Shown piece by piece: positions 21,182 through 63,310 of a stretch of DNA of 64,000 nucleotides. Under the pieces are notes generated by a model. The model did no database searches, was not told the origin of the DNA, and saw nothing but the letters and a program-made list of their open reading frames with translations. The position numbers and the translations under genes were made by a program. The DNA comes from Candidatus Tritonobacter lacicola (lineage in GTDB: Bacteria; Auribacterota; Tritonobacteria; Tritonobacterales; Tritonobacteraceae), in contig JAVCDC010000020.1 of the NCBI GenBank assembly GCA_030765135.1, positions 10,916 to 74,915 of the forward strand, given 5' to 3'. Position 1 is the stretch's first letter. Every line of letters starts with the position of its first letter.

Positions 21182-22504
21182 ATGGACCTCGTTAGGAAGG
21201 TTTGGGAGGCGGGCGTGGTGGGCGCCGGGGGGGCAGGTTTCCCCACGTGGAAGAAGATCGACGCTCAGGTCGACACCGTAATCGCAAACGGCGCCGAATG
21301 CGAGCCACTCCTGAGGAACGACCGTAACCTCATGGCCGCCAGGGCGAAAGACGTGGTCAGGGGAATGGAGCTCGTCATCTCCTCCATGAATGCAAAGGAG
21401 GGGATCATAGGCCTGAAGAAGAAGTACGCTAAGGCCGTCGCCGCATTCAAAAACGAGCTAAAGGGCAGGGAGAACATCAGGCTCCACCTTCTTAATAGCG
21501 TATACCCCGCAGGAGACGAGTTCGTCCTCGTTTACGAGGTCACCGGCAAAGTCGTGCCCGAGCAGGGCATACCCCTGGACGTGGGAGTGGTCGTCAGCAA
21601 CGTCGAGACGTTCGCGAACATCGCGGCAGCCGCCGATAAGGGCGCAAGCGTGATCTCCCGGTTCGTGACCGTGACGGGCGCGGTGAAGGAGCCGAAAACG
21701 GTCATCGCCCCCATCGGCATGCCCCTGTCGGAGCTCATCGCCGCCGCGGGAGGGACGCACCTCGACGACTACGTCATCCTCACGGGCGGCCCAATGATGG
21801 GGACCATCGAGAACGACCCCGCAACCCCGGTGTCGAAGACGACGACCAGCATCATCATCCTGCCCCCGGACAACCCGACTGTGGTAAGGAAGACGCGGCC
21901 GCTTTCCATAGATATCAACAGAACGAAAGCCATGTGCTGCCAGTGCAACTACTGCACGATGATATGCCCCAGGGCGATGCTGGGCCACAGCCTGAAACCA
22001 CACATTATAATGAGGTCGATCAACCTCGGCCTCCCCTCTCCCGCGACAAACGTTACAATGGCCGCCCTCTGCTGCAACTGCGACCTCTGCGGCGTTTACT
22101 CCTGCCCAATGTGCCTCCCGGTCGGCAGGATCAATGTGGAAATCACCGATACCATGTCGGAAATGGGGTGGAAGCCCGCCCCGCGGACGGAGGAGCCCTC
22201 CCCCCACCCCATGAGGGAGTACAGGCTGGTGCCCGTGAGCAGGCTCACCATGAGGCTCGGACTGTCCGATTACGACCGGGACGCCCCGCTCGACAGCAGA
22301 AAGCTCAAAACCGGGAGGGTCCGCATTCCTCTCAAACAGCACATCGGCAAACCGGCGGCGCCCATCGTGAAGAAGGGCGACACGGTCAAAGCCGGCCAGC
22401 TCATCGGCGACCTCGAATGGGGGACGATGGGGGCGCGGGTGCACGCGTCTATAAACGGCGTCGTCGCTCGCGTCGACGACGAGGTAATCATAGAAGCGAG
22501 GTAA
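21182..22504 (+). CDS. PduS-like RnfC-family flavoprotein with two 4Fe-4S ferredoxin motifs (BMC-associated NADH-dependent electron-transfer protein)
   Basis: GAGGAGFPT glycine-rich loop typical of the RnfC/NuoF/PduS family. Two Cys clusters: CCQCNYCTMICP and CCNCDLCGVYSCPMC. 440 aa. Confidence 0.75.
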   Translation: MDLVRKVWEAGVVGAGGAGFPTWKKIDAQVDTVIANGAECEPLLRNDRNLMAARAKDVVRGMELVISSMNAKEGIIGLKKKYAKAVAAFKNELKGRENIRLHLLNSVYPAGDEFVLVYEVTGKVVPEQGIPLDVGVVVSNVETFANIAAAADKGASVISRFVTVTGAVKEPKTVIAPIGMPLSELIAAAGGTHLDDYVILTGGPMMGTIENDPATPVSKTTTSIIILPPDNPTVVRKTRPLSIDINRTKAMCCQCNYCTMICPRAMLGHSLKPHIIMRSINLGLPSPATNVTMAALCCNCDLCGVYSCPMCLPVGRINVEITDTMSEMGWKPAPRTEEPSPHPMREYRLVPVSRLTMRLGLSDYDRDAPLDSRKLKTGRVRIPLKQHIGKPAAPIVKKGDTVKAGQLIGDLEWGTMGARVHASINGVVARVDDEVIIEAR

Positions 22505-22521
22505 AAATCGGAGAGCAATCC

Positions 22522-23070
22522 ATGGAACCGGCAATAGGGATTATAGAATTCAACAGTATCGCGGGGGGCATCTACGCCACGGACGCCATGGCCAAAAAGG
22601 CGCCGGTCGAGATAGTCGACTCGAAATCGATCTGCCCCGGAAAATACATGATCCTCATAACGGGCGCCGTCGCTGACGTAGACGAGTCGCTCAGGGCGGG
22701 CATCAAGGCCGGCGCGGAGACGGTGACCGACCACTTTTTCATCCCGAACGTCCACCCCCAGGTGATCCCCGCCATACTGGCCGCCACTCCTTTCGAGGAG
22801 ATGAAGGCCATCGGCGTGATCGAGACCTTCTCCGTTCCTTCCACCATAATCGCCGCAGATGCCGCAGCGAAAGCCGCGGATATTAACCTCATAGAGCTGC
22901 GGCTGGCCAACGGCCTCGGCGGGAAGAGCTACCTGACCCTCACCGGTGAACTGCACGATGTGGAGGTCGCCGTCGACGCAGGAGTCGGGGCTATAAAGGA
23001 GATAGGAGCGCTCGTCAGAAAGGTCGTGATAGCCAGGCCGAGGGTGGACCTGGCAAAGTTCCTGGCCTAG
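22522..23070 (+). CDS. PduT-like tandem-BMC shell protein (BMC-T) with conserved pore Cys38 (Fe-S cluster ligand in PduT)
   Basis: The true start is the ATG at 22522 (RBS-like gagagc upstream); the six-frame ORF track extends it spuriously back to 21934 across the PduS gene. Two BMC domains (AIGIIEFNSIAGG... and AIGVIETFSVPST...). SKSICPGKY aligns with Salmonella PduT SKTICPGKF. Confidence 0.8.
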   Translation: MEPAIGIIEFNSIAGGIYATDAMAKKAPVEIVDSKSICPGKYMILITGAVADVDESLRAGIKAGAETVTDHFFIPNVHPQVIPAILAATPFEEMKAIGVIETFSVPSTIIAADAAAKAADINLIELRLANGLGGKSYLTLTGELHDVEVAVDAGVGAIKEIGALVRKVVIARPRVDLAKFLA

Positions 23071-23841
23071 ATGAAGTCGGAGAGGGAAATAAGAAACGAC
23101 ATAGTGTCCGTCTGCCACATGATGTGGCAGAAGGGCTTCGTCGCCGCGACCGACGGAAACGTCAGCGTCAGGACCGGGAAAGACAGGATCCTCTGCACGC
23201 CCAGCGGCCTCAGCAAGGGCCTCGTTCAAGCCCGCGACCTGGTCGTGACCGACATGAGCGGGAAGAAGCTCACCGGGGAGAAGGACGTCACGAGCGAGAT
23301 CCTCTTGCACCTGGAGGTATACCGGCGGCGCGACGACGTAGCCGCCGTCGTTCACGCTCACCCGCCGATGGCGACCGCGTTTTCAATAGCCGGCGTCTCC
23401 CTCGCCCAGTGCGTCATCCCCGAGGTCGTCCTGACAATGGGCGCCATCCCGACGTCCGAATACGCGACGCCCAGCTCCGGCGAGGGGCCTTCCGCCGTGA
23501 GCGACCTGATAACACGGTGCGACGCACTCATCCTGGACCGCCACGGGTCGCTGACAGTGGGGCCTGACGTATTTTCAGCTTATCTCAAGCTCGAAAAAGT
23601 CGAGCATTGCGCCCAGGTGACGTTAGCGGCGCGGCAGCTCGGAAAAGTCAGGACCCTTTCGCCTGAGCAGGTCAACAAGCTCGTAGCCCTGCGAAGGGAC
23701 ATGGGCATCGGCGGCAAGACAATAGAGTGCAACAACTGCGGCATCTGCACAATCGAGGAGGGAGAAAAAGGTCAGAGCGACCTCATAGAAAAACTGGTGG
23801 CAGAGGCAATACAATCAATAGGGCTCGAAAAGAAGGAATAG
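23071..23841 (+). CDS. Class II aldolase/adducin-family protein (L-fuculose-/L-rhamnulose-1-phosphate aldolase-like) with a C-terminal extension of about 45 aa
   Basis: Class II aldolase core motifs (DGNVSVR, HLEVYRRRDDVAAVVHAHPP, zinc-ligand His). The start codon abuts the PduT-like stop. C-terminal tail GGKTIECNNCGICTIEEGEKGQSDLIEKLVAEAIQSIGL. Confidence 0.85.
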   Translation: MKSEREIRNDIVSVCHMMWQKGFVAATDGNVSVRTGKDRILCTPSGLSKGLVQARDLVVTDMSGKKLTGEKDVTSEILLHLEVYRRRDDVAAVVHAHPPMATAFSIAGVSLAQCVIPEVVLTMGAIPTSEYATPSSGEGPSAVSDLITRCDALILDRHGSLTVGPDVFSAYLKLEKVEHCAQVTLAARQLGKVRTLSPEQVNKLVALRRDMGIGGKTIECNNCGICTIEEGEKGQSDLIEKLVAEAIQSIGLEKKE

Positions 23842-23881
23842 AAAAAGGTTCGCAGATTACCCGAAATATGAGGCAGGAGAT

Positions 23882-24163
23882 ATGACCGAAAAGAAAAAAG
23901 GAAAAGCGGAGAACCAGAAAACCGAATATCCCGAGGTAATGACCATAGAACAGCTCTCCGGCTACCTCCAGCTTCACAAACAGGTTATTTACCGCCATAT
24001 CAGGAGCGGCAACATTCCCGTCAGCAGGATCGGCGCAACGATCCGTTTTAAGAAGTCGGTCATCGACGAGTGGCTCGAGGACTCCGCGCTCCGGAGCCTT
24101 CAAAAATCCAGGGAAGCGAAAAGAGAGGTATCCTATCCATCGTTTAATCCCGAAGAGGACTGA
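23882..24163 (+). CDS. Stand-alone excisionase/MerR-family HTH DNA-binding protein
   Basis: MTIEQLSGYLQLHKQVIYRHIRSGNIPVSRIGATIRFKKSVIDEWL matches the excisionase-family DNA-binding domain. Same domain type as the N-terminus of the 2341-2934 protein. 93 aa. Confidence 0.65.
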   Translation: MTEKKKGKAENQKTEYPEVMTIEQLSGYLQLHKQVIYRHIRSGNIPVSRIGATIRFKKSVIDEWLEDSALRSLQKSREAKREVSYPSFNPEED

Positions 24164-25964: not shown

Positions 25965-26996
25965 TTAAAAGAGGGGCACTCCCTTGCAGAACCGCTCCTT
26001 CTCTATCTGGCCGGAGTCGACCGACACCAGCGCGACGGTCTCCTTGCCGAATATCTTCAGCTTGACAAGGCGCGCCTCTATCTTCAAGCGCTCGCCGTTG
26101 TAGAACTCTCCCCTGATCGAGCCGTCGTAAATTATGAAATAGATATCGTCGGCCTCCTTACCGTCGATATAAACCTCCTTGAGCTTCAGCATGAGCGGCA
26201 TGTAGATGGAGTGGGTGTTGTCCTCTATCGTCCCGTATGCTTCGACCGACTCTTTCAACAGCTCCACGTCGCAGTACGTCAGCGGTATGTCCTTTACGTC
26301 GCTGTAAACGCAGAACGTGCAAATGATGATCCCGTCATGATAGAAGCGAACCGGCCAGAACTTGCCGAACTCCATGCACCGCCTGTTCGGGTCAGTGTAT
26401 GTCATCGACCATATTTTCCGGACGGTCTCCATGTTCTGCTCGGGCGTGCCGAAGAATACGAGGTCTATATCCTCGTCGTCCTCCATCCTGCCGTAGGCGA
26501 GGGAGCCGGTCACGCCCATCCGCTCCATGGGGATATCCAGAAGCTTGCTCACCTCTTTGAGCCTCCTGCCTATCTGGGGGTACTTTTCCATGACTCTGGA
26601 GAGGGAGACCTTGTCGTTGAACCATCCGTCGAAGTCCTTGAGGTCGAAAACCACGTGGAAATCGGTCACAACCGGCGTGGGCTCGGTCGGCTTGAGGGTC
26701 TTGTCTATCTTGTATTGATGCTCTATCTGCTTGTCGTGGGGGATCATCACGTGCTCCCCGTCGATCCACGCCTTCGTTATGCTGGTATAGTGCTCCCCGT
26801 GAATCTCGATGTCGCCCGCGGGATCGGGATAGTTGATGATCTTACCCAGGAAGTGGCCCGGCGGGTGAAAGTACCCCTCGGTATAGGTGAGCGCCCCGGT
26901 CTTCTTTAGAAAATAAGTCGTATCCATCACCACCGGCCCCAGCGTATCCATGGGCTGGAGGAGCTTCCCAATCTCGTACTTCCAGTCGTTTTTCAT
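25965..26996 (-). CDS. Pol-beta-superfamily nucleotidyltransferase-fold protein of unknown function (343 aa)
   Basis: Central motif GVTGSLAYGRMEDDEDIDLVFFG fits the minimal NTase signature G[SG]-x(9-13)-DhDh. About 160 aa of N-terminal region and about 160 aa of C-terminal region have no recognisable domain. Confidence 0.5.
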   Translation of the reverse strand: MKNDWKYEIGKLLQPMDTLGPVVMDTTYFLKKTGALTYTEGYFHPPGHFLGKIINYPDPAGDIEIHGEHYTSITKAWIDGEHVMIPHDKQIEHQYKIDKTLKPTEPTPVVTDFHVVFDLKDFDGWFNDKVSLSRVMEKYPQIGRRLKEVSKLLDIPMERMGVTGSLAYGRMEDDEDIDLVFFGTPEQNMETVRKIWSMTYTDPNRRCMEFGKFWPVRFYHDGIIICTFCVYSDVKDIPLTYCDVELLKESVEAYGTIEDNTHSIYMPLMLKLKEVYIDGKEADDIYFIIYDGSIRGEFYNGERLKIEARLVKLKIFGKETVALVSVDSGQIEKERFCKGVPLF

Positions 26997-27050
26997 AATG
27001 CTCCTTTCCTTACTTTACAGATAACATTCATAGTCTTATAGCTATCTTTA

Positions 27051-27899
27051 TCAGCGCCTCTTTGTTTTCTTGGCCTCCCGCCCTTCTTTCGCTTTCCTGT
27101 CTTCCAGGATCTCTTTATACCGCTCATCCCTGAGCCTGCGGCACTCCTTGCCGCTCTTGCATAGTTCCGGGTTGTTCCACATCGCCTCGAACTCGGCGAG
27201 AAAATCGTTAACAATGTGCCGGTCCTCCGGACCGGTAAAGACCATGAGATTTTCCAGGTTCTTGATCTCCGCGGAGCTCGACCAGTTATAGCTCCCCGAG
27301 GCCAGGAGATCGCGGTTTATTATGACGGCTTTGTGGTGCCAGATATGCGACTTCTGATGGAAGTGGTCGTACGCGGGCCCTCCCTCCTCATCTTTCCATG
27401 ACCAGCCGGGGTAGTAGTGATATCGCACCTCGATGTTGGGGATGGGCCTGCCGCGGAACTGGCTGACCATTTTCTTATAGGCCTTTTCGACCGCTGTTTT
27501 TCGCTTCTCCTCATCCTCGATATAGGCGCCCCTCCGCTCGGCAAGCTCGCGGTACCGCTCCTTCTCGCCGCTGGCCACGCCGTCCATGTAGGGCACGGCG
27601 GAGTACTCCGACTCGTGCATGCTCAGGTTCGCGAGAATACGTATCTTGACGTCGGGAAAGTCCCTGCCGATGCGCAGTAGCGTGTCGGCAAGCCGCCTCG
27701 ACGTGAAGCTGAAGATGGCCACGTCTATCGTCCCCTCACCCTTCTCCTTCGCCCTGCCGACCGCCATGGAGAAGCACTTCATAATCTCGTCGTCGAGGGG
27801 GGCATGGCTGTTGAAGAACACCTTCACATCCTGCCTTGCATCGGCGGGCAGGAGAAAGAGCGCCGCGGCAACCATAACAGCAAGGGCAGGCACTTTCAT
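27051..27899 (-). CDS. Secreted single-HKD phospholipase-D-superfamily protein (Nuc-like nuclease / PLD-like)
   Basis: Signal peptide MKVPALAVMVAAALFLLPADA. One HKD motif HHKAVIINRDLLASGSYNWSSSA (H-x-K-x4-D-x6-G-S-x-N). Confidence 0.8.
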   Translation of the reverse strand: MKVPALAVMVAAALFLLPADARQDVKVFFNSHAPLDDEIMKCFSMAVGRAKEKGEGTIDVAIFSFTSRRLADTLLRIGRDFPDVKIRILANLSMHESEYSAVPYMDGVASGEKERYRELAERRGAYIEDEEKRKTAVEKAYKKMVSQFRGRPIPNIEVRYHYYPGWSWKDEEGGPAYDHFHQKSHIWHHKAVIINRDLLASGSYNWSSSAEIKNLENLMVFTGPEDRHIVNDFLAEFEAMWNNPELCKSGKECRRLRDERYKEILEDRKAKEGREAKKTKRR

Positions 27900-28657
27900 T
27901 TCTTCTCAACCTTTTCCGGATGGGGCTGCACCCTCCACCGCCCCATCTCCCACAGCCTGTCGAACTCGCCCTGGAACGCCCGTACAACGTCCGGGCAGCC
28001 CCAGAAGAAGAAGCGGTTATCATGGTAGATGAGCGTGGCCAGCCTGCTGATGTTGGCGCTCCCGTTATAGCAGTCCTTTCCATCGAAGATGCCGAACTTC
28101 TCGTGCATGGTCTTGAAGGGTATCCCGGTGACCTTCTCCGCCTTCTCCGGATCCAGCACCTTCACCTCTATCACCGGGCGGACCTTCTCGAGGTCCCCGA
28201 CCATCGGGTCGATAATGGGCTTCTTCGTGATAAAGTCCGTGATGGATTCGTCGAGGAAGATACGGACCTTTACCCCCCTCTCGTTCGCCTTCAGGAGCTC
28301 GAAGTACTCATCGGACCTGTTGTCCAGTATGTAGGAGGCGATGTCTATCGTCTTTTCGGCCCGCCTGATCATGTCCGTCAGGGGGTTTGCCATGTTGCCG
28401 GGGGAAACCTTTTCCGACTCGAGGTCCGGCTGGAGCAGCACAATCTTCTTGTTATAGTTCTGCGGCGCGAGGCCGCCCGTCGGGCCGAAATAGACCTCGG
28501 CTTTGCAACTCTTCCCTGCGTCCTCCCCTGCAACAGCATACAGAGCAGCAAGCAGTACAGCTGCACCGACTAAAAGTCCTCGAATGTACCTAGTCCAATA
28601 CACCGGCTCTATCCCTGAAAAAAAGTGGTTCAAACCCAAATTCCACACAGAAAGCAT
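27896..28657 (-). CDS. Secreted or membrane-anchored single-HKD phospholipase-D-superfamily protein, paralog of the downstream gene
   Basis: N-terminal hydrophobic segment LLVGAAVLLAALYAVAG. HKD motif MHEKFGIFDGKDCYNGSANIS. 4-nt ATGA overlap with the next gene on the strand. Confidence 0.75.
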   Translation of the reverse strand: MLSVWNLGLNHFFSGIEPVYWTRYIRGLLVGAAVLLAALYAVAGEDAGKSCKAEVYFGPTGGLAPQNYNKKIVLLQPDLESEKVSPGNMANPLTDMIRRAEKTIDIASYILDNRSDEYFELLKANERGVKVRIFLDESITDFITKKPIIDPMVGDLEKVRPVIEVKVLDPEKAEKVTGIPFKTMHEKFGIFDGKDCYNGSANISRLATLIYHDNRFFFWGCPDVVRAFQGEFDRLWEMGRWRVQPHPEKVEKK

Positions 28658-28735
28658 GAAAATATGGAATAAGGTAATATAGAAATAATTCTTGCAGTCT
28701 AAAAACCGCTTTATATCTCAATGTTTTTACGTTTT

Positions 28736-29797
28736 TCAGTTTGTGTTTTTGATATTTGATTTTTGATATTTGATTTTATCATATCCCCTCGACCGTATCT
28801 TCTCTATGGCCCTGCCCGCGTCCCTCGGGTACTCCGCCGCCAGTTCCTTCAGCAGGGGCAGGCACTCACTATCGCCGGACTCCCCCAGCGCGGCGATTGC
28901 CAGCTTTCTCAACCGGTCATTCCCCCCCCTGCCGGCCGCGGCCTCCCTGATAAAGGGAAGGCCCCGCTTTTTCATGAAATCTTCAGCCGGGCCGCCGGGG
29001 TTGCGACCCCCGATCAGCCCGATGATCCTGCAGGCGGAGATCTTCTTCCTCTCCGACCCCGCGCCGTCGAAGAAGGCGACCGCCCCCGCGGCCACATTCT
29101 CGCCGCCGTTCCTCCCCAGGGAGAGAACAACGCGCTCCTCCACTGCGGGGGACATCTTTTCCTGCCCTTCGTATAAGCTTAGAGCCAGGACGGGGTCCAC
29201 GTAGCCGAGCGTCTCCCATGAATCCCGCTGTATCTGGGGGTCGAGGTAAGTCCGGGCCATCTCCGAGAGAGAGGGAATGCCCTCATCCGCCAGCACCTTT
29301 CCAAGCGCGTCATCCTGTGTCCTGTCGTGGATGCCCTTCATGGCGAAAATAGCCATGATCTTCGCCCGCGGCTCGCCTTCCAGGAGAAGGGCGGCAAGCG
29401 CCCGGCCCAGCTCGGCTCCGCCGCCGGCCCCCGCCTCGCGTGCGGCCTGCCACCTGGCGCTCACCGGACGGCGGCTTCCTATAAACCCGGCGACCGCATC
29501 CGCCGACTGCTCCTTCGGCGAGCGGGCCAGCTTCTCCACCGCCAGGAGGGAAGACTTCCCGTCGCCGCTCCTGGCTATCTCCGACAGGGACGCCACGGCA
29601 ACATCGGAATCTTCCTCGCCGAGAAGCTCGACGATCTCCTCCCTCTCCCGGGAATCCGGGGCTGACCTGTACCTCTCCATCAGGACACCGGCACCCGGTT
29701 GGACATCCTCGCCGGTTCTCCGGCCCATCCGAACATAAAGGAAGAGGGCGGCGGATATAAGGACAACGGCGGAAACGATAAGCACAACCTTTCTCAT
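28736..29797 (-). CDS. HEAT/PBS-lyase-type repeat protein with N-terminal TM anchor
   Basis: N-terminal hydrophobic helix. Repeated alpha-helical HEAT-like units (for example IARSGDGKSSLLAVEKLARS and GKVLADEGIPSLSEMART). Confidence 0.5.
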   Translation of the reverse strand: MRKVVLIVSAVVLISAALFLYVRMGRRTGEDVQPGAGVLMERYRSAPDSREREEIVELLGEEDSDVAVASLSEIARSGDGKSSLLAVEKLARSPKEQSADAVAGFIGSRRPVSARWQAAREAGAGGGAELGRALAALLLEGEPRAKIMAIFAMKGIHDRTQDDALGKVLADEGIPSLSEMARTYLDPQIQRDSWETLGYVDPVLALSLYEGQEKMSPAVEERVVLSLGRNGGENVAAGAVAFFDGAGSERKKISACRIIGLIGGRNPGGPAEDFMKKRGLPFIREAAAGRGGNDRLRKLAIAALGESGDSECLPLLKELAAEYPRDAGRAIEKIRSRGYDKIKYQKSNIKNTN

Positions 29798-29889: not shown

Positions 29890-31371
29890 TTATCGCCATC
29901 CATAATCCTTATCACCCAGCATCCCCGGATGTGTGCCATAAATGCCGCCGCTATCCTTGTAAAAACCCAAAGTTCCCGATGAGGGCGTTGGCGCCCAATC
30001 CGGCTGGAAGTTGACTGCAGAGATTAACGGTGTCGGGGTAACCGTTGCCGTAGGTGTGATAGTCGGTGTTGGCGTGACTGTGGATGTAGGTGTCGCCGTG
30101 GGCGTATTCGTAATGGTAGGCGTCTGAGTGGGCGTGTTGGTGATCGTGGGTGTCTGAGTGGGTGTGTTAGTTATAGTTGGTGTTTGTGTCGGTGTATTGG
30201 TAATGGTCGGCGTCTGCGTTGGCGTATTTGTTGTTGCGTTCGTAGGCGTGTTGGAAAGAATTGCGTACAACCTGTTATCCTTTGATCCAAAATAGATCGT
30301 TATGTCATCACCTATAGCAGGTCCTGATTGTACGCGGTTTGCAGTCGCGTAGCTCCACATAAAGGAACCATCAAAGCTAAAGCCGTAAAGGCGGTTGTCA
30401 TTATTGCCCGCGTAAACGCTCCCGTCACTGCCTATAGCTGGGGCTGAATCGAAATCCTCTCCGCCCACATAGCTCCATAACAAGGAGCAGTTGGAGTTCA
30501 GGCTGTAAAATCTGTTGTCGCGAGAGCCAACATAAATTATACCGCCTGAACCTATGGCCGGTGAGCATTCGACCGTCCCTCCTGTTTCATAGCTCCATAA
30601 TAGGGAGCCTTTCGAGTTAATGCTGTAGAGACGGTTGTCCCGAGATCCTGCGTAAACCGTCCCGTTCTCAGCTATGGCCGGTGAAGAGTTTGCATCCCCT
30701 CCGGTTATATAAGTCCAAAACAAGGAGCCAGCAGAGTTAAGGTTGTAGATGGTGTTGTCCCGACAGGCCGTACAAACTGTACCATCCGGACCTATTGCCG
30801 GTGATCCGTAAATGTAGTCCTGGAATGCATAGGTCCACGACAAGGAGCCATTAGAATTTAGGCTGTAGAGGCGATGGTCCCAAGAGCCCAAGTAAACCCT
30901 TCCCTCGGCACCTATGGTTGGCGAGGAGTAATCGAGCGGGCCTAAGGTTCTATAGCTCCACGATAAGGATCCATCGGAGTTAATACTATAGAGCCTGTTG
31001 TCCGAGGATCCCGTGTAAATTCTTCCGTCACTACCTATAGCTGGTGATGATCGGACACTACCACCGCTCACATAACTCCACGATAAGGATCCATCGGAGT
31101 TAATACTATAGAGCCTGTTGTCCGAGGATCCCGTGTAAATCTTCCCAGCCGTGCCTATGGCGGGTGAACTCTGATAAATCTCATATCCGGTTGCATAGGT
31201 CCACTTCAGAGCCAGCCCAGAAGCGAGAGGACCCTGATGCTGGCTCAGGCCCGTATGCCTCGCGTCGTGATGGAACATCGGCCAGGGGCCGGAATCAAGC
31301 TGGGCATTGGAGTTGAAGACAAAAGAAAAAAACATAACAAGCATAACCGCCACATGTCTTTTTACAGCCAT
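29890..31371 (-). CDS. Secreted PQQ-like beta-propeller repeat protein with C-terminal Thr-Pro-rich repeat linker (TNTPTQTPTI x4)
   Basis: Signal peptide. About 8 repeats of the pattern YSxNSDGSLSWSY..GG.V.SSPAIG.DG.IY.GS.DNRLY (40-aa blades). Low-complexity TPTQTPTITN repeats. Confidence 0.7.
   Translation of the reverse strand: MAVKRHVAVMLVMFFSFVFNSNAQLDSGPWPMFHHDARHTGLSQHQGPLASGLALKWTYATGYEIYQSSPAIGTAGKIYTGSSDNRLYSINSDGSLSWSYVSGGSVRSSPAIGSDGRIYTGSSDNRLYSINSDGSLSWSYRTLGPLDYSSPTIGAEGRVYLGSWDHRLYSLNSNGSLSWTYAFQDYIYGSPAIGPDGTVCTACRDNTIYNLNSAGSLFWTYITGGDANSSPAIAENGTVYAGSRDNRLYSINSKGSLLWSYETGGTVECSPAIGSGGIIYVGSRDNRFYSLNSNCSLLWSYVGGEDFDSAPAIGSDGSVYAGNNDNRLYGFSFDGSFMWSYATANRVQSGPAIGDDITIYFGSKDNRLYAILSNTPTNATTNTPTQTPTITNTPTQTPTITNTPTQTPTITNTPTQTPTITNTPTATPTSTVTPTPTITPTATVTPTPLISAVNFQPDWAPTPSSGTLGFYKDSGGIYGTHPGMLGDKDYGWR
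30955..31140. repeat. Exact 66-bp duplication at 120-bp spacing inside the propeller gene (recent blade duplication)
   Basis: ctccacgataaggatccatcggagttaatactatagagcctgttgtccgaggatcccgtgtaaat occurs identically at 30955-31020 and 31075-31140. Confidence 0.85.
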
Positions 31372-31633
31372 CTGCTGCCTCTTGCTTAAAAAGGGATTAC
31401 ACGCCCCGTCTCCGGCAGTACTGCCGGAGCCTGATAACGAATCTCAGAGAGATTCTATCTCAGGATAATCACTTCAGCAAAGACTAATCATAAAACTTAT
31501 TGCGTTATCCTGATTGGAAATCGGATTGCGAAGCCAGGCGGTGACTGTTATTATAAATTCTGCGAAGAGGAAAAGGAAGCAGGCTTCCCGGATCGACGGG
31601 CGGCCGCGGCCCACACCTGAAAGGAGGAAGCAG

Positions 31634-32260
31634 ATGAAGCGGAAACTATGCATCGGCTCAGCAATCCTGTCGGTTTTTCTTGTAATCAACGCATTCCCCC
31701 AGGGAGGCGAGAAAAAGACCACTGCAGCCAGGGCAAAGCCCCTCGCCTGTATTATCGATCTCGACGGCACAATCGCCGACGAATCGGCGCGCAGGGAGGC
31801 CGCTGCCGGTGAGGACGGCAAACTCCAGGGAAAGGAGTGGGACGCGTACTTCGACACGTCGAAAGTGCCGGGTGACAAGCCCCTTCCTACGGGTCGGGAG
31901 ACGCTCCACTGGCTCGACGGCCAGGGCATCACGATATTCTACGTCAGCAGCCGGCCGGCCACGATGCTCGAGGCCTCAAAGACCTGGCTCAAGGTGAACG
32001 GCTTTCCCCCCGGGGAAGACGTCCTCCACAAAGAGGATAAATACGAGAAGTCACTGAAGTACAAGACCCGCGTCATCGAGGATATTAAGGCCGGGGGTTA
32101 CAACGTGCTCTTCGGCGTCGGCGACAGGGACAAGGACATCCAGTCGTACGAGGCGGCAGGCATCATCGGCATCAAATTGGAGCCCAACAAGGACGAAGAG
32201 TGGAAGCGAGCGAGGCGCGAGATCGAGGAGATACTTAAAAAGCAGGCTGCAACGAAATAA
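31634..32260 (+). CDS. HAD-superfamily phosphatase (acid-phosphatase / 5-prime-nucleotidase-like), secreted
   Basis: Start at 31634 (RBS aaggagga at 31621-31628; the ORF-track start at 31514 is an upstream extension). Signal peptide MKRKLCIGSAILSVFLVINA. HAD motif I IIDLDGT and motif IV GVGDRDKD. Confidence 0.6.
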   Translation: MKRKLCIGSAILSVFLVINAFPQGGEKKTTAARAKPLACIIDLDGTIADESARREAAAGEDGKLQGKEWDAYFDTSKVPGDKPLPTGRETLHWLDGQGITIFYVSSRPATMLEASKTWLKVNGFPPGEDVLHKEDKYEKSLKYKTRVIEDIKAGGYNVLFGVGDRDKDIQSYEAAGIIGIKLEPNKDEEWKRARREIEEILKKQAATK

Positions 32261-32265: not shown

Positions 32266-32754
32266 ATGAAACCCCACGCATGCGTGATAGATATTGACGG
32301 CACTATAGCCGACGAATCCCTCAGGCGGAGAAGAGCGACCGACAGGGACGGCGACATAAACTGGCGGAAGTACTTCCGCGAGGACATCGTCCTGGAAGAC
32401 CCCCCCATAGAGAAGGCGCGGGATGTCCTGAGATGGATCAAGGAGCAGGGGTGCCGCATTATCTACCTGAGCAGCAGGGACGACAAGCTTACCAAAACCA
32501 CGAAAGACTGGCTCATCAAACACGGCTTCCCGGGCGGCGACTTAAAGCACCGGAAAAAGTATCAGAAAACCACCGAATTTAAAATTTGCACGATAAAGAG
32601 CCTGCAGAAAAGGTACGACATCATCTTCGGCATCGGCGACCGCGACGGCGACATAGAGGCCTACCGTGCGGCCGGCATCATCCCCCTGAGGGTAGTAACA
32701 AACCAGGAAGAAGACTGGGACCGCATCCAGCACGAGATCCAGAAGATCATCTGA
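32266..32754 (+). CDS. HAD-superfamily phosphatase, cytoplasmic paralog of the upstream gene
   Basis: VIDIDGT (motif I); LSSRDD; GIGDRDGD (motif IV). Co-linear similarity to 31634-32260. No signal peptide. Confidence 0.6.
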   Translation: MKPHACVIDIDGTIADESLRRRRATDRDGDINWRKYFREDIVLEDPPIEKARDVLRWIKEQGCRIIYLSSRDDKLTKTTKDWLIKHGFPGGDLKHRKKYQKTTEFKICTIKSLQKRYDIIFGIGDRDGDIEAYRAAGIIPLRVVTNQEEDWDRIQHEIQKII

Positions 32755-51967: not shown

Positions 51968-53218
51968 TCATGGGCTTAAAATTAGCGGTTTCTGCTTTGG
52001 TCCAGGAGTGTTTGAGCTAGGCACAAAAATGTCCGGGATCTCTCTGAAAACATTCCGCAAGCCAATTCTTAAATAAGGATTCTCTGCAATATGGAGGGCT
52101 AAAGAAAAGGTATGGTCATGATTAAATATCACGCGAATAAAAAGAACAGCATGTATACGAAGGTTGATTCCAAAATTGGAATTTTTCTGCCCCCAAAAGC
52201 CATCTTGAGAGTTACTCGGGGTAGCTTTTATATTGTCTGCATCTATGGGGGTATCATAATCCGGAACGGGGATTGTATATATAGGCTGCCCTATTAGCGT
52301 GTAATATAGGGACTTGGGATCCATTATGATAGAGGATTCCAAGATTGAAGATATAACGATTGGGAAAGGATAATTATCAAGCTTTTTTTGTAAACGCCTG
52401 ATAAAGCGATTTGGGTTGGGATCGCCAGTAGCGAATCCTAAAGTTGCTCCCATATAAACTAACCCTTTATTTGCTCTTGGATGCAGAGTAAACTTAATAA
52501 AAGCGCCATTATGACTTATTTTATGTATTGCCCTTTTGCTTGAATGCCAATCGCCCAAATTGGCAACATAAGATAAAAGTGCTTCTCCCATGCCATTAAA
52601 ATTCCCTTGGTCATTTGGAACAGGAGTGCCTTGGAGAAAAATAAAAAATTCACCTTTGATCGTCTTAAGTTCGTCGAGGAAACGAGACATATTGTCATCG
52701 AATTGGCGCATGATTATTTCTTGCGACATGTAGAAGGCCTCAACAAAGAAACTAGTGTATTGTGTTCGCGCATAGAAATCTGGGGTTCGGCCCGCTATTA
52801 GTGGTTCATACTTAAGATTCTTTATATATTGGGAAAGAACCCATCCAGTTATGAGGTTTCCTAATGCGCCACGGAAGTTTCCATCATGAAATGAAGTAAG
52901 GTGGTTTCTTAGGGATTCGCTTTTTTGTATACCTTCAGGGAGAGACTTCCACATGCGATTAAGTTGATCTAATCGTTTATGGCGATGTTTGATATCAGAT
53001 AACATTCTCCCCAACATTCTATGCTTCAACTCTTCATTTTGTTCTATTTCTTGAAGGAGCTTGTTAATCACTTGCTGGGAAAAGACCATATCATTATCTC
53101 CTTTTCTTCGTGGACGCAGGGTTTGTTTCATATATCTGTAAATGAACCAAGAAGCGAGAATTAGAAATATTGTAACCAGGATCAAAGAGTATGGTGGTAT
53201 TAAGAACGGCATCAGCAA
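51968..53218 (-). CDS. Hypothetical membrane-anchored protein (416 aa): N-terminal TM helix, predicted coiled-coil, about 300-aa globular C-terminal domain; last gene of the RM operon
   Basis: N-terminal hydrophobic helix LILVTIFLILASWFIYRY; helical region with heptad-like pattern. Strongly AT-rich. No recognisable domain. Lies 63 nt downstream of the hsdR stop on the same strand. Confidence 0.5.
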   Translation of the reverse strand: MLMPFLIPPYSLILVTIFLILASWFIYRYMKQTLRPRRKGDNDMVFSQQVINKLLQEIEQNEELKHRMLGRMLSDIKHRHKRLDQLNRMWKSLPEGIQKSESLRNHLTSFHDGNFRGALGNLITGWVLSQYIKNLKYEPLIAGRTPDFYARTQYTSFFVEAFYMSQEIIMRQFDDNMSRFLDELKTIKGEFFIFLQGTPVPNDQGNFNGMGEALLSYVANLGDWHSSKRAIHKISHNGAFIKFTLHPRANKGLVYMGATLGFATGDPNPNRFIRRLQKKLDNYPFPIVISSILESSIIMDPKSLYYTLIGQPIYTIPVPDYDTPIDADNIKATPSNSQDGFWGQKNSNFGINLRIHAVLFIRVIFNHDHTFSLALHIAENPYLRIGLRNVFREIPDIFVPSSNTPGPKQKPLILSP

Positions 53219-53281
53219 GTGGGCGATGGGGATATCGCTGTTGATTCCTTCGCAACTTAGTTGGAATTATTGAGTTAGCGA

Positions 53282-56200
53282 TTATGCCGCTTCTTCACCT
53301 GTCCATTCGTGGCAAAGAACCTCAGCTTGCTCCAAAACCGTTTTGGTGGCCTTCTCCTGTTTATCGGGCGGATAGCCGTACTTGCGCAGGATACGCTTCA
53401 CGATAACGCGAATCTTCGCCCTGGCATTCTCACGCATGGTCCAATCAATAGTCACGCTTCTTCGGACGGCGGTGACCAGCTCCTGCGCAATAGTTCTTAG
53501 CGTCTCGTCGCCGAGCACTCTGACCGCGCTATCGTTGACTTCCAGTGCGTCATAGAAGGCTACCTCATCCTCGGAAAGTCCTAGATCTTCCCCGCGTTTC
53601 TGCTCCTCCCTCATCTCCTTGGCAAGCTTGATCAACTCGGCTATCACCTGGGCCGTTTCGATAGTACGGTTCTGGTATTTCCGGATCGCCTCTTCGAGCA
53701 TCTCCGTGAACGATCGCCCCTGAACGACATTCTTCTTCAGCCGCACCTTTATCTCATCCCTTAGAAGCTTCTGGAGGAGCTCGACCGCGAGATTACGATG
53801 TGGGAGTTCTTGTACCTCTGCCAGGAACTCATCAGAGAGAATCGAGATGTCCGGCTTCTTCAGCCCGGCGGCAGCGAAGATGTCAACAACCTCATCAGAG
53901 CTAATAGCCTTGGATACGAGTTGCTGAATAGCGGTATCAAGCTCCTCTTGGGTCTTCACATCTCGTTCAATCGTGGCTTTTGCCAGAGCGCTCCGGACCT
54001 CCTGGAAAAACCCGACTTCATCCCGAATCTTGATCGCCTCTTCGTGCGGCACCGCCAGGGCGAAAGCCTTGGACAGGACTGTTACCGCATATAGGTACCG
54101 CTTCTTGCCATCATCAAGGGAAAGAATATGCTCCATTGCCGCCGCGATACCCGCCATGCGCTCGGCAGCCTTGGCCAATAAAAGTAGCCTATAGTCAAAA
54201 CCATGGAACATGCCGCAGACGATCTCGTATTTCTCAAGCATGATAGCCACAGCTTCTTCCTGGTCAATCGTTGCCTTACCGTGACCACCGCTGGCCGTGT
54301 AATCGGATAATGCCCGTTTTAGCTGATCGGCCAGGCCAAGATAGTCCACTACAAGCCCGCCGGGCTTATCTTTGAATACCCGATTAACGCGAGCAATGGC
54401 CTGCATCAACCCGTGGCTCCGCATGGGCTTATCCACGTACATGCTGTGCATGGACGGGCAGTCAAACCCCGTCAGCCACATATCGCGCACGATGACCATT
54501 TTCAGGGGGTCATTCGGATCCTTGAAACGCTTGGCAAGCGCCTCACGGCGAACTTTGTTACGGATATGTGGCTGCCAGTCCAGATTATCCGACGCGGAGC
54601 CCGACATCACTATCTTGATCGCCCCCTTATCATCGTCGGCATGGTGCCACTCAGGCCGCAGTTCGACGATTGCGTTGTACATGTCCACGCAGATTCGGCG
54701 GCTCATGCACACTATGAGGGCCTTGCCCTCCATGGCCTCCAAGCGGCAATCGAAGTGCTCAACCAAATCCTCCGCGACTAATCCGATACGCTTCCCCGTC
54801 CCGACCATGGCCTCCAGGCGAGCCCACTTCGTCTTGAGCCTCTGCTTTTCTGACTCTTCTTCTCCCTCCGTTACCTCCTCGAACTCCGGATCGATTTTCG
54901 GCCTCTCCTCGTCTAAAAGCTCTATCTTGGCCAGCCGGCCTTCGTAATAAATGCGGACGGTTGCTCCGTCTTCGACGGCGCGAAGAATATCATAGGTGTC
55001 GATGTAATTCCCGAAGACTGCGGGAGTGCTTCGGTCATCACGCTCGAGGGGTGTCGCTGTAAACCCGATAAACGAGGCATTGGGCAGGGCGTCCCGCATA
55101 TGCCGGGCGAATCCATCGATAAAATCATACTGGCTGCGGTGGGCCTCGTCCGCGATCACCACGATATTCTCGCGCTCAGATAGCGCCGGGTAGGATTCTC
55201 CTTTGATCTCGGGGAAAAACTTCTGGATGGTAGTGAAAATCACCCCCCCGGATGCCACCTGGAGCAATTTCCGGAGGTTTTCCCGGCTTTCAGCCTGCAC
55301 GGGCGTCTGGCGAAGCAGAGCCTTGCACCCGGAGAATGTTCCGAAGAGCTGATCGTCGAGATCGTTGCGGTCGGTAATCACAACAAGAGTCGGGTTCCTC
55401 ATGGCCGGGTGGCGAATGATCTTCCCGCCGTAAAAGACCATCAGAAGGCTTTTACCGCTGCCTTGCGTGTGCCAGATAACACCGATGCGCCGGCCGCCGA
55501 AGTGCTTCGACCCCGGGCCAAAGGAGACGGAAGTCTCCTTCACTAAAAACGGGTCCACATCCTCCGGAGCCGGGAATCTCCCGTAGAGCTGACCCGGCTC
55601 AGCCTCGATGCCGCACGCGCTCAAGGTGCAATCCACTGCCTTGTTGACCGCGTGATACTGGTGATAGGCCGCCACCTTCTTGAGTACCTCCGCTCCGTCA
55701 TCTTCCAAAACAACGAAATTCAAGATCAAATCCAATAGACGATGCTTGTCGAACAAACCTCGAATCAGCGTCTCAAGGCCAGGCATGACTTCGCCATCGG
55801 TCTGTTCCTCACTGCCAGGCTCACGATAGAGATCCGTTCCGTCTATAGTGCGCCACGGCATGAAGCGCTCCCAATTGGCAGTAAGTGTACCAATACGTGC
55901 CTTTAAACCATCGGCAATGACCATAATCTCGTTGAATGTAAACAGGCCGGGGATGTCGTTCTTGTATGTCTGTAACTGGTTAAAGGCATGGCGGATTGTC
56001 GCCTTCTCATCGGCGGGATTTTTTAACTCTATCACCGCCAGGGGCAAACCATTGATAAAGATTACAATATCAGGGCGGCGATTATTTCGATTCTCAACCA
56101 CTGTAAACTGGTTGACCGCCAGCCAATCGTTATTCTCAAGGTTATCCAGATCCACCAGCCAAACCTTATCGAACACCTCGCGGCCATTATCCATGTAAGA

Positions 56201-56497
56201 TACATCAATGCCTTCGGTGAGCATCCGGTGAAAGCGACGGTTGTTCTCTATCAGACTTGCTGTTTCCGTTCTGATAATTTGGCGTATAGCATCATCAATC
56301 GCAGACGGAGGGATATCGGGGTTGATATTTTCAAGCGCAATTCGCAAACGCTCTTCAAGCACAACCTGATCGTAGCGCTCGCGCTCAACTCCAAGCTCGT
56401 CCGGACTGATGAAAGGTCCAAATTTCACTGCATAGCCAAGGTTCTCGAACCAGGCAAGGGCTATTTGTTCCAATTGGTTTTCGGTTATACCGCTCAT
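53282..56497 (-). CDS. hsdR: Type I restriction enzyme R subunit
   Basis: HsdR N-terminal domain ([22 protein letters not shown]); SF2 helicase motifs [15 protein letters not shown] and [12 protein letters not shown]. 1071 aa. Confidence 0.95.
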
Positions 56498-56680
56498 TGA
56501 TTCATCTTCGCCCTTTAACGTGTCTGATACAATCTCTCCGTGAAACCGCCTTTCTAAGTAAATTGCTAGTAAAGCTGCCGCAACTCGTCAATGCTGATAT
56601 CCGTTACTAAAAAAATCTCAAAGCAAATCTCACATAAAACCCTATCATAACGATCTCAACTTTTATCTCAGCGAGGTATA

Positions 56681-58597
56681 TTATTCCCAATCCCCGAAAT
56701 CAATACCGATAGCTTTAGACTCCTTTTTGAGGAATCGTTTTTGACATAACTCTTCGATATGTCTGTGAATTCTCCGAACAGTAGTGCCGAAAATCAGATT
56801 TGCTAACGTCATAATAGCTAAAAAGGCAGAGGTGCAGAGCAGAAGCACCCATCCTAATGCTGATTGCATATTGATGTACCCGAATATGACTCCAGCCAAG
56901 AGAAGAACTGAGATAATACCTGAAACCGCCCATGCAAAGTATTTTGCTTTCCTTTGGTACTTCCAGAACAATCTCTGTTGTAGAGCTTTCTTCTCGATCT
57001 CAGTTAACCTCAATTTTTTCTGTGTCTCTCCATGGGCGGTTTGCTCCTCTTTAAATTTTTCATATTCCTCCTTTTTTATCTCCTTCGTTACACGAGCCAA
57101 GGTTTCCGTAATTGCTTCAGGGGTAAGTGCAGCCTCTTCACCCAGCGTAAGCCTCATAAGTTCATCTTGGGCAAAAACACTACTGCGTAATAGCTGATGA
57201 TCGCGTTCTGAGATTTTGCCATTCTTTTCTAGTTGATCAATTTCAGATAGATACTTGTCTAAAAGCTCCTTCGAGGGCTTAAGTGCTGCATACGAATAAG
57301 CAATCACTTCGATAGTTGGAAGAGATGGTGCTCCCATGGGAGCTTTTAACCACGCCATGTTTGCTAAACTAAAATCCGTTATGACAGTTGATACTTCGTA
57401 GGACTCTTCATGTTTCTTTCCATATTCATAAGCTGCCTTTGAAAAAGCAGAATTGCTTGTTACCAAGACAGCCTTACATTTCTCTATAATAGAAGGTGAT
57501 TGGCCTTTTCTTAGGGCATAAATACTTCTTACGGAATTAATATCATATTCTCGCGCTCGGGGATTGAAGTAACTCACCTCATCATCCAGAGCTTTCTCGA
57601 AGGCATTCTCATCGATTTGAAAATCAATAATATATTGAGGAGTGCTCTTCACTTCGATATTGGCGTCTTCAAGAAGATCATCAATCTTGCCAGCCACAAG
57701 CAGTAGGTCGGATTTAGTCGCCCCCTTTCTCCGGGATTCCATAACGACAGCTCCTCGCCCATTGGAATAGTCAATATGATTAGCAGCTCCTCTGACGACA
57801 CGTTCGAGTTCGTCTCGCGAGTGGTTGAATGTTGCCACCTTGGCCCCGAGATTACGCAATAAAATTATTAGCTCTTCTATCGCATGATGCTTTGCCTTAC
57901 CCTCTAATCCTAGTCGCTGCACAAGTAGTGGAGTGTCCAGATAAAATATAACTCTCTTATAAGATTTCGGTGCATCATGCAGGTCTGGACACAAGAGCGC
58001 ATTGGCCAACATATGACCTTGTACTAAAATCATCATACTATCAAATCGCTCTAGGTCATTTTCCCGAAGGTGAATGATATATTGGCTTACCAGAATAATG
58101 TAAGCATTTTGCTTTCCAACAAGGTTGGGGATGGCAGTTCCTCGCAGATACGCTCTTATGCAAGGGATTGAGAATTCTGAGAGAAATGCACATAGTGCAT
58201 CGACTGCCTCATCTCTGGTAGAGATTGGAGAATAAGCACCCTGGCGGAAAGCGAAGAGGCCAGATATGACTGCGTCGATGTGCCTATCGGCATCAGCCTT
58301 CTTGATATTAATGTTTGGGTTAGGCAATTCTCCCTTGATATGATATACCCCTTTGGACTTCTGGAGGGGATGCTTTCGTGATATACGCCGCAGGATAATC
58401 TGAGCAGATCGTGGGGGTATTTCCAACCCAAAATCACTGAGGAGGTATTGCACCACCACCTGATCAGTTACCGGACTTGGTTCATGATCGATTAGTACCT
58501 GAAGAATAAAAGGACGGAGATACTCAAGGTAATCACTTCCTTGGTCAATGTTTACTTTGAGCATTGCCAAACTGGTCAATGTTGCTGTAGATGCCAT
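56681..58597 (-). CDS. Hypothetical 638-aa protein embedded between hsdS and hsdR: soluble N-terminal about 530 aa, charged helical segment, two C-terminal TM helices
   Basis: No Walker, HEPN, HKD or NTase motif recognised. C-terminal hydrophobic helices FAWAVSGIISVLLLAGVIFGYI and GWVLLLCTSAFLAIMTLANLIFG. AT-rich codon usage like the rest of the island. Confidence 0.6.
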   Translation of the reverse strand: MASTATLTSLAMLKVNIDQGSDYLEYLRPFILQVLIDHEPSPVTDQVVVQYLLSDFGLEIPPRSAQIILRRISRKHPLQKSKGVYHIKGELPNPNINIKKADADRHIDAVISGLFAFRQGAYSPISTRDEAVDALCAFLSEFSIPCIRAYLRGTAIPNLVGKQNAYIILVSQYIIHLRENDLERFDSMMILVQGHMLANALLCPDLHDAPKSYKRVIFYLDTPLLVQRLGLEGKAKHHAIEELIILLRNLGAKVATFNHSRDELERVVRGAANHIDYSNGRGAVVMESRRKGATKSDLLLVAGKIDDLLEDANIEVKSTPQYIIDFQIDENAFEKALDDEVSYFNPRAREYDINSVRSIYALRKGQSPSIIEKCKAVLVTSNSAFSKAAYEYGKKHEESYEVSTVITDFSLANMAWLKAPMGAPSLPTIEVIAYSYAALKPSKELLDKYLSEIDQLEKNGKISERDHQLLRSSVFAQDELMRLTLGEEAALTPEAITETLARVTKEIKKEEYEKFKEEQTAHGETQKKLRLTEIEKKALQQRLFWKYQRKAKYFAWAVSGIISVLLLAGVIFGYINMQSALGWVLLLCTSAFLAIMTLANLIFGTTVRRIHRHIEELCQKRFLKKESKAIGIDFGDWE

Positions 58598-58711
58598 GCT
58601 ATACCTCCTCGGCTATCTTTTTTATGCCTTACATTTCGATGGCCCGGAACGTCCAGCTAACGAAAGATTATCCAAGAACTTTTCGCTCTTTCTTATTAAT
58701 AAGCTCGCGAT

Positions 58712-59926: not shown

Positions 59927-60513
59927 GGCAAAGCTCCCCGCCAGGGTTGCCTTGAAATATACCCAGCTCATGAACACGCTCGAAAAACATATCTATAAGT
60001 TGCGATTTTATCGGCATGTTACGACGACGTGTCGATATTATCAATGTGTCATTGCGAGAGCAATTCAATGTAATTTCGTGCCGCCAACCCTGGATTCCAG
60101 GGGTAAATCGGTAGATTAGGCCAGAACATCGGTAGATCATCGGTTGCTTTGATGCCATGGCTCAGGTCCTTGAACCGATAATTTCGCGTCAACCATCGAT
60201 AAATTATCGATAGATTCAGTGATATCCCATCCGGCCCTTGGATCGGTCGATTTCTATAAATCGTCGGTCGATTATCGGTCGATTTCGTCCTCGAGTTTGG
60301 CAACATTCTTCCTGAGTTTACCGATTTATTACCGATTTTCTCCATGAGGACACATTGCATGAGGCAGTTGAGGCATTTCTGAGTCATTTTATTTGCCCCT
60401 CTTGCCCCTTTCCTTAAGGATTTGACGGGTTTATGTCGGGTTTCGTGTCCCCATTGTCCCCACTATGTCCCTATTCCTGGTTATTGCCCTTGCCTCATTG
60501 ATTTCTTTTTGAC
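59927..60513. promoter_or_regulatory. 587-bp non-coding region upstream of hsdS with a 17-bp perfect palindrome and three direct repeats of [ag]tcggtcgatt
   Basis: atcgataaattatcgat palindrome at 60196-60212. atcggtcgatt at 60242-60252, gtcggtcgatt at 60263-60273, atcggtcgatt at 60274-60284. Further atcgg / ccgat words throughout. gtcccc-type direct repeats at 60440-60475. Confidence 0.35.

Positions 60514-61711: not shown

Positions 61712-61734
<23 letters not shown>
60514..61734 (-). CDS. DUF1016/YhcG-family PD-(D/E)XK nuclease-like protein embedded between hsdM and hsdS
   Basis: N-terminal region [15 protein letters not shown]...[26 protein letters not shown]-(D/E)XK core [25 protein letters not shown]. 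Overlaps the hsdM 3-prime end by 23 nt. Confidence 0.75.

Positions 61735-63310
<1,576 letters not shown>

Follow-up and report, generated by a model that had tools for sequence, protein, structure and literature searches.

When two genes for exported proteins of the phospholipase D (PLD) superfamily are followed on the same strand by a gene for a nucleotidyltransferase (NTase), which of the three products work together, and on what substrate? The question is raised by the genes HKD1, HKD2, and NTase, which lie on the minus strand of a 64,000-nucleotide stretch (hereafter the window) of the genome of Candidatus Tritonobacter lacicola, a member of the Auribacterota. We consider it likely that HKD1 and HKD2 are the two halves of a split secreted PLD enzyme, probably a nuclease, and that the NTase is an unrelated neighbor. 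Candidatus T. lacicola is an Auribacterota metagenome-assembled genome (MAG) from Ace Lake, Antarctica (PMC9324843); the paper that names it mentions none of HKD1, HKD2, and the NTase.

Layout of the locus

The three minus-strand open reading frames (ORFs) are present exactly where a preliminary description of this DNA had placed them. The four-nucleotide overlap of the HKD genes and the 54-nucleotide spacing from the HKD2 stop to the NTase ATG, also claimed there, are confirmed in the sequence, and a strong AAGGAAAGGAG ribosome-binding site lies inside the 54-nucleotide gap. The features of the locus, in window coordinates, are as follows.

28736..29797, minus strand: gene for a membrane-anchored HEAT-repeat protein, upstream of HKD1 (Pfam HEAT_2)
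28676..28703, minus strand: promoter-like site TTTAGA-16-TATATT, a consensus match only and not enriched over shuffles
27896..28657, minus strand: HKD1, predicted N-lobe half of a split PLD-family enzyme; longest ORF 253 residues, Pfam PLDc_2 E=1e-17
28526..28657, minus strand: putative N-terminal signal-peptide region of HKD1 (MLSV...LLVGAAVLLAALYAVAG), with a hydrophobic core, by inspection
28052..28105, minus strand: HKD1 catalytic motif HEKFGIFDGKDCYNGSAN (HxKx4Dx6GSxN), from the translation and invariant in ortholog alignment A3
27896..27899, minus strand: ATGA overlap of the HKD1 stop and the HKD2 start, from the sequence
27051..27899, minus strand: HKD2, predicted C-lobe half of the split PLD-family enzyme; ORF of 282 residues, Pfam PLDc_2 E=5e-12
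27837..27899, minus strand: putative HKD2 signal peptide MKVPALAVMVAAALFLLPADA, with a hydrophobic core, kept in split orthologs
27285..27338, minus strand: HKD2 catalytic motif HHKAVIINRDLLASGSYN (HxKx4Nx6GSxN), from the translation and invariant in alignment A2
25965..26996, minus strand: NTase, a neighboring ORF outside the proposed PLD unit, for a predicted cytoplasmic Pol-beta-type protein of 343 residues
26463..26507, minus strand: NTase active-site motif GSLAYGRMEDDEDID (G164 S165 ... D176 x D178), from the translation and family conservation
26370-26372, minus strand: putative third carboxylate of the NTase, E209, from family conservation

The promoter-like site falls in the 78 nucleotides that separate the HEAT-repeat gene from HKD1. 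An NCBI protein of Candidatus T. lacicola matches HKD2 with 100% identity. The N-terminal region of HKD1 as annotated is about 26 residues longer than in its orthologs, which have 221-240 residues, and the true start may lie further downstream. In orthologous loci the two genes overlap by 1-20 nucleotides or are separated by short gaps.

The HKD1 and HKD2 proteins

Both proteins clear the gathering score of the Pfam model PLDc_2 (27 bits), HKD1 with 64.6 bits and HKD2 with 46.2 bits, and their HKD motifs are therefore not chance matches. Residues H185, K187, D192, G199, S200, and N202 of HKD1 are invariant among its orthologs, as are H188, K190, N195, G202, S203, and N205 of HKD2. The claim that each protein carries one H-x-K-x4-D-x6-G-S-x-N motif is right for HKD1 but not for HKD2, whose motif reads HHKAVIIN... 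(HxKx4N), with an Asn, invariant in 18 orthologs, in place of the Asp. Each protein begins with a hydrophobic segment followed by an AxA-type site, and the maximum Kyte-Doolittle hydropathy over 15 residues is 2.59 for HKD1 and 2.66 for HKD2, compared with 0.71 for the NTase. By inspection, then, both HKD proteins appear to bear signal peptides and the NTase does not, as had been proposed. These N-terminal features are kept in all HKD orthologs inspected, and the HKD1 orthologs all begin with a short signal peptide ending ...FAG/E.

The two proteins had been called paralogs, which is only loosely right. They give no match to each other by BLAST, and their profiles align over just 59 columns around the motif (hhalign probability 95%); HKD1 and HKD2 are therefore not recent duplicates. 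Instead, HKD1 corresponds to the N lobe, and HKD2 to the C lobe, of a two-HKD protein.

Split, fused, and permuted forms of the pair

In all three contigs inspected for HKD1 orthologs of 45-76% identity, an HKD2 ortholog is the next gene, while the flanking genes are different in each (ParB, glutamate dehydrogenase, DUF362). A metagenome scan with the HKD1 alignment gave 60 further loci, bringing to 63 the number mapped by tblastn and ORF mapping. An HKD2-like segment lies directly after the HKD1-like segment, is fused to it, or shares its ORF in 62 of these; the remaining locus is cut by a contig end. In 21 loci the segments occupy separate ORFs, HKD1 first and HKD2 second, which mostly overlap or lie no more than about 100 nucleotides apart. 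A single ORF of about 450-600 residues, with one N-terminal signal peptide, contains both segments in 31 loci, and the other ten encode them in permuted order within a longer single ORF. The HKD1-like and HKD2-like segments are thus never found apart among the 62 informative loci. Such Rosetta-stone fusions, together with the strict adjacency, strongly suggest that HKD1 and HKD2 form one enzyme with a composite active site, and the earlier suggestion that the two proteins act jointly is well supported by these natural single-chain fusions of both halves.

Two of the 31 single-ORF loci, L071 and L073, encode fused proteins that share 49-50% identity with each of the window proteins. A Pro/Ala-rich linker (...AAGGIESRFNS) occupies, in these two, the position held in the close split relative L070 by the HKD2 signal peptide, which ends ...LAAGGIETRFNS. 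In a neighbor-joining tree of the fused and concatenated sequences, the split loci all group in one clade to which fused loci are outgroups, and the fused L071 and L073 fall within it, so that split and fused states interconvert. The simplest history would begin with an ancestral fused gene that underwent a single fission in the Auribacterota, in which the C lobe gained a signal peptide, with a later re-fusion in some descendants. Viewed in this way, the window pair represents the N and C lobes of one bilobal PLD-superfamily enzyme, split by gene fission.

Conserved gene neighbors beside the pair are lineage-restricted only: Endonuclease_NS, transketolase, amylase-family, and glutathione-related genes. 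An ABC ATPase cluster considered as a conserved third partner was rejected as generic. Fused two-HKD proteins such as those at L075:5953-7593 and L088:5962-7635 share a conserved tail of about 70 residues (...GxEGYSQAD) with weak winged-helix similarity (Pfam HTH_24/HTH_27), which is unusual for an exported protein.

Proposed mechanism

In the Auribacterota lineage each lobe would carry its own Sec signal peptide. The genes usually overlap or abut and their signal peptides are separate, and therefore the halves would be made together and exported separately. They would then assemble outside the cytoplasm as a pseudo-dimer, whose single active site would be built from H185, K187, and N202 of HKD1 and H188, K190, and N205 of HKD2. 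One His would act as the nucleophile on the phosphodiester and the other as the general acid. Such a two-His scheme is the established mechanism of the PLD superfamily. The substrate would most likely be nucleic acid, with metal-independent breakdown of periplasmic or extracellular DNA or RNA serving nutrient scavenging.

Linkage of the NTase to the pair

No HKD1 or HKD2 homolog was found by tblastn within 8 kb at any of 52 NTase-family loci, and no PLD gene is listed for a 53rd, L053. In the other direction, the 63 HKD loci contain no NTase homolog within 6 kb. The NTase ortholog and the HKD pair occur on separate contigs of 453 kb and 274 kb in ERZ25039495, and likewise on separate large contigs in JGI 3300028920. 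In front of NTase orthologs at 75-77% identity (L001:6898-7860, L053:7014-7884) lie a cold-shock-domain gene and a small ORF (76-98 residues), and one ortholog at 80% identity sits between a PCMT-like fragment and RecQ. Locus L117 alone repeats the order HEAT-HKD1-HKD2-NTase, with 88% identity for the NTase and 79-80% for the HKD proteins. Only in the window and in L117, where its homolog is 57% identical, is the HEAT-repeat protein next to the pair; no homolog of it was found in the other 63 HKD loci. The NTase may be cotranscribed with the pair here, since the 54-nucleotide gap in this genome has no terminator-like site on the minus strand.

The NTase is accordingly best regarded as an unrelated neighbor, whose juxtaposition with the pair appears to be recent and confined to this species group. 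The preliminary description had considered the three genes as a possible new operon type, and this idea fails the test set there: the trio is not kept together across the 53 NTase and 63 HKD loci. It had also listed a second-messenger-controlled nuclease system, for which there is no support, and an unrelated neighbor, which is the role that the neighborhood data favor.

Likely substrate of the pair

The best matches in profile searches of the PDB were Nuc (1byr; 3e-9 and 3e-8) and Zucchini/MitoPLD (up to 3.5e-13), and other top matches were NucT, the PLD3/PLD4 5'-3' exonucleases, and a poxvirus nicking-joining enzyme. Among NCBIfam models DrmC and NucT rank first, with scores far under their cut-offs. 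The ten permuted relatives (L085:4582-6516, L108:3958-6516, and L097, L099, L103, L104, L106, L109, L112, and L115) have the order HKD2-like lobe, ComEA-type helix-hairpin-helix (HhH) repeats, and C-terminal HKD1-like lobe. A Pfam and NCBIfam domain check covering L085 and L108 found the ComEA-type domains between the lobes of both (Pfam HHH_3, 1e-17 and 5e-13), and L108 also clears the TIGR00426 cut-off of 53.1 bits, with 54.2. The permuted architecture resembles that of a DNA-binding secreted PLD nuclease. The weak winged-helix-like tail of some fused relatives likewise points to nucleic acid. With nuclease-type nearest relatives and HhH modules, the pair is favored as a periplasmic or extracellular metal-independent nuclease for nucleic-acid scavenging, and extracellular DNA degradation is the one among the roles first suggested that suits it best.

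Eight loci of the fused lineage have an Endonuclease_NS gene 2-3 kb away (for example L077:9830-10711, downstream, Pfam 3e-42). This may mark a nucleic-acid-scavenging neighborhood or mere lineage synteny. About 3 kb upstream of HKD1 in the window are two tandem paralogs resembling HAD-IIIB acid phosphatases and the PNKP phosphatase, which share a DIDGTIADES motif.

31514-32260, plus strand: first HAD-IIIB paralog, with a hydrophobic N-terminal segment that is a possible signal peptide
32266-32754, plus strand: second HAD-IIIB paralog

The products of these two genes could act on nucleotides freed by the neighboring nuclease.

Alternative explanations

Several points weigh against a split secreted nuclease with an unrelated neighbor. 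PLD folds act on lipids too, and MitoPLD is annotated as a cardiolipin hydrolase; source labels for the HKD proteins include 'cardiolipin synthase-like'. The relatives with HhH domains share only about 30% identity and have a permuted order, and they may act on another substrate. The assignment of signal peptides relies on visual inspection and Kyte-Doolittle hydropathy, and the proposed heterodimer of HKD1 and HKD2 is deduced from fusions and synteny. The lack of a terminator-like site and the gene order kept in L117 leave room for co-expression, and some local functional coupling, of the HKD genes and the NTase.

The first of these points leads to an enzyme that is heterodimeric but lipid-active, a periplasmic or outer-membrane phospholipase or transphosphatidylase. 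Membership in the PLD superfamily is generic, the JGI and NCBI labels read 'phosphatidylserine/phosphatidylglycerophosphate/cardiolipin synthase-like' or 'phospholipase D family', and Zucchini/MitoPLD, among the best PDB matches, was deposited as a cardiolipin hydrolase. We nevertheless judge a lipid substrate unlikely: the best NCBIfam and PDB relatives are Nuc, NucT, DrmC, and PLD3/4 rather than ClsA/B/C or PssA, relatives incorporate ComEA HhH DNA-binding modules, and no lipid-metabolism genes are conserved beside the pair. The bacterial single-HKD nucleases Nuc, NucT, BfiI, and DrmC are described as homodimers, and each window protein has a complete H/K/GSxN set, which would suit two independent Nuc-like homodimers that are merely co-expressed. 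Against this stand the 62 informative loci in which the two are never apart, their fixed order, and repeated fusion in the same order; HKD1 and HKD2 are moreover too divergent for recent duplicates, and the pattern is that of obligate partners. Independent homodimers are accordingly quite improbable. It is harder still to credit that the three genes make up one system, in which the cytoplasmic NTase would make a nucleotide signal or modify nucleic acid and so control or complement the secreted nuclease. The shared strand, the 54-nucleotide gap with no minus-strand terminator-like site, and the conserved order in L117 would fit such a system, but not one of the 53 other NTase loci or the 63 other HKD loci shows the linkage. 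The compartments differ as well, the NTase being predicted to stay in the cytoplasm and the HKD pair to be exported; PADLOC reports nothing for the NTase and only a weak generic DrmC-like match for HKD1; and the NTase is one of about seven paralogs, each with different neighbors.

Known defense and toxin systems were also considered and rejected. For DISARM, the DrmC model gives 39.4 bits against a cut-off of 133, PADLOC DrmC matches are weak (E >= 1e-8), and the neighbors are HEAT, PQQ-propeller, NTase, and Nth genes instead of DISARM partners. A defense system of any kind (DISARM, CBASS, or other) is represented for the HKD proteins by only weak generic PADLOC matches to DrmC, PbeA, and Mko. 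The NTase was rejected as a CD-NTase of CBASS, with no PADLOC match, no conserved partner, and CdnE matches at E 0.3-0.4, and as the NTase of an MNT-HEPN toxin-antitoxin pair, having 343 residues in three domains versus about 100-140 residues, and no HEPN-like neighbor seen.

The NTase family

The NTase scores 17 bits against Pfam NTP_transf_2, under the gathering score of 21, and its sole PDB profile match is the MNT-like 2rff (E=0.59). The motif spacing had been given as GS-x9-DDEDID; the sequence has GS-x7-DDEDID (G164 S165 ... D176 I D178). An AlphaFold2 (AF2) model built with 46 homologs (pLDDT 92.2, pTM 0.89) has three domains: a beta-rich N-terminal domain (residues ~25-85), a Pol-beta-type core (residues ~115-235), and a C-terminal OB fold that matches SSB, RPA, and LysRS anticodon-binding domains in the PDB and viral SSBs in BFVD. 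A second model, limited to residues 1-238 (pLDDT 87.6), was compared with the PDB by Foldseek; its best matches are poly(A) polymerases (PAPs), TUTases (Cid1, Tailor, TUT4), CdnE/cGAS, and ANT(2''), and all are weak (TMq <= 0.29, E 0.035-1). Neither structure nor sequence searches found a full-length relative of known function.

The family comprises 85 full-length homolog clusters, all from MAGs labeled Auribacterota, 'Aureabacteria', or PVC, or from metagenome contigs. Its catalytic residues are conserved almost throughout (GS, D176, and D178 each in 83 of 85 members, E209 in all 85), and the paralogs therefore look catalytically competent. Counting family members in fetched loci, grouped by assembly prefix, gives about seven paralogs per Auribacterota MAG, and six assemblies have exactly seven. 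The seven comprise two singletons, two divergent copies, one tandem triplet, and one tandem doublet. Loci L005-L052 belong to this family (for example L027:8001-11164, L034:4128-7251, and L037:5751-8987).

A HMMER scan of 1.84 billion representatives found 295 NTase-family clusters at E <= 1e-3. Ten distant representatives had no Pfam domain, and only one was named, as a 'predicted nucleotidyltransferase'. The distant member P0211/P0309 (533 residues) has a SAM-dependent methyltransferase domain at residues ~330-480; the family match ends before it, at residue 281 (profile position 317). This fusion may hint at nucleic-acid end modification.

Clustering of neighboring genes found further copies of the family, glutamate dehydrogenases, HSP20, and HEAT/CSD genes, each specific to one paralog group, and no conserved partner gene across the approximately seven paralog contexts. 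In the group at 57-59% identity an Hsp20 gene follows the NTase (L003:9088-9696, L010:9296-9910), and another paralog lies between two glutamate dehydrogenase genes.

Because the model combines an OB fold with resemblance to PAPs and TUTases, the most natural guess for the protein is a nucleic-acid 3'-end nucleotidyltransferase. A far more ambitious proposal, which we put forward as doubtful, covers the whole locus. The NTases would be an undescribed nucleic-acid-directed class, expanded to about seven intact paralogs at the base of the Auribacterota, each perhaps tailing or modifying its own RNA or single-stranded DNA substrate and possibly tied to stress through the cold-shock and Hsp20 neighbors. 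The HKD/HKN pair, independently of this, would to our knowledge be the first PLD-family nuclease found in nature to be an obligate heterodimer whose chains assemble once each has been exported.

Other features of the window

Between the HEAT-repeat gene and the HAD-IIIB pair, a minus-strand gene (29890-31371) encodes a secreted PQQ/BamB-like beta-propeller protein, with a Pro/Thr-rich C-terminal linker in which TNTPTQTPTI is repeated in tandem about four times. L069 and L073 have homologs of this protein 3-4 kb away from the HKD pair, in another relative position.

Downstream of the NTase, in window coordinates lower than those of the three genes, the region 21182-24163 on the plus strand is part of a bacterial microcompartment (BMC)-type cluster, with an RnfC/PduS-like Fe-S protein, a BMC-shell-like ORF, and a class II aldolase assigned from their translations. 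After these comes a small Pfam-checked HTH_17 (excisionase-type) gene (23882-24163, plus strand). A BMC has been reported for this MAG (PMC9324843), and the cluster in the window agrees with that report.

A low-GC island at 51968-63310 (GC 0.43-0.48, against about 0.57 elsewhere) holds a type I restriction-modification system, with two large ORFs interleaved among the hsd genes.

51968-53218: large ORF without a Pfam match, 416 residues
53282-56497: HsdR
56681-58597: large ORF without a Pfam match, 638 residues
58712-59977: HsdS
60514-61734: YhcG PDDEXK nuclease gene
61712-63310: HsdM

Implications

The pair belongs to what appears to be a natural split-and-refuse series of PLD enzymes: fused, split with two signal peptides, and re-fused. 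The series lets one ask how an asymmetric two-His PLD active site tolerates division between two chains, and it bears on how a new signal peptide can originate from an inter-lobe linker. It also allows a probable extracellular nucleic-acid-scavenging function to be assigned in an uncultured candidate phylum. Annotation is spared a 'nuclease plus NTase system' that looks tempting but is false. The NTase family, phylum-restricted and Pfam-less, with seven paralogs per genome and a three-domain structure modeled with confidence, would be a sensible place to look for new nucleotidyl-transfer activity.

Comparison with known systems

The 343-residue protein shares with Pol-beta NTases the signature hG[GS] ... 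DxD ... E and a core modeled by AF2 at pLDDT 88-92. Compared with PAPs, TUTases, CdnE/cGAS, ANT(2''), and minimal MNT-type NTases (2RFF), its architecture is unique, with an N-terminal beta domain of about 100 residues and a C-terminal OB fold, and it has no PAP-associated or cGAS-type helical domain, no HEPN partner, and about seven paralogs per genome.

For the HKD pair, the closest parallels among single-HKD enzymes are Nuc of Salmonella pKM101 (1BYR) and NucT of Helicobacter pylori (6EHI), which are likewise Sec-exported small PLD folds with one HxK...GSxN per chain and which build one active site from two chains, as predicted for the pair. Nuc and NucT are homodimers of one gene product, whereas the window has two diverged, non-interchangeable chains (HKD and HKN) encoded by two coupled genes, and HKD2 has an insertion of about 60 residues. 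Against the NucT/Nuc equivalog models (NCBIfam NF010490-3) HKD1 scores 32 bits and HKD2 30.9 bits, far from the cut-off of 297. Zucchini/MitoPLD (PLD6), the top PDB sequence match for HKD2 (3.5e-13), is also a single-HKD chain that dimerises, and Zucchini has been described as a nuclease that acts on single-stranded nucleic acid; unlike the window pair, it is a eukaryotic, membrane-anchored homodimer without a partner gene.

PLD3/PLD4 exonucleases and the poxvirus nicking-joining enzyme join an N and a C lobe as an 'intra-chain dimer' in one chain. The nearest relatives of the pair are the secreted two-HKD proteins of loci L075-L116 (520-600 residues), with which, as with L071 and L073, it aligns lobe for lobe. 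The distant fused relatives carry the C-terminal winged-helix-like tail (weak HTH_24, HTH_27), which the window proteins lack, and the window lobes, unlike those of single-chain bilobal nucleases, are separate polypeptides with their own predicted signal peptides. In a limited literature search, no PLD-family nuclease that is naturally split or heterodimeric came to light. In its sequence features the pair resembles both Nuc/NucT and the bilobal PLD nucleases, and it is an equivalog of no named family.

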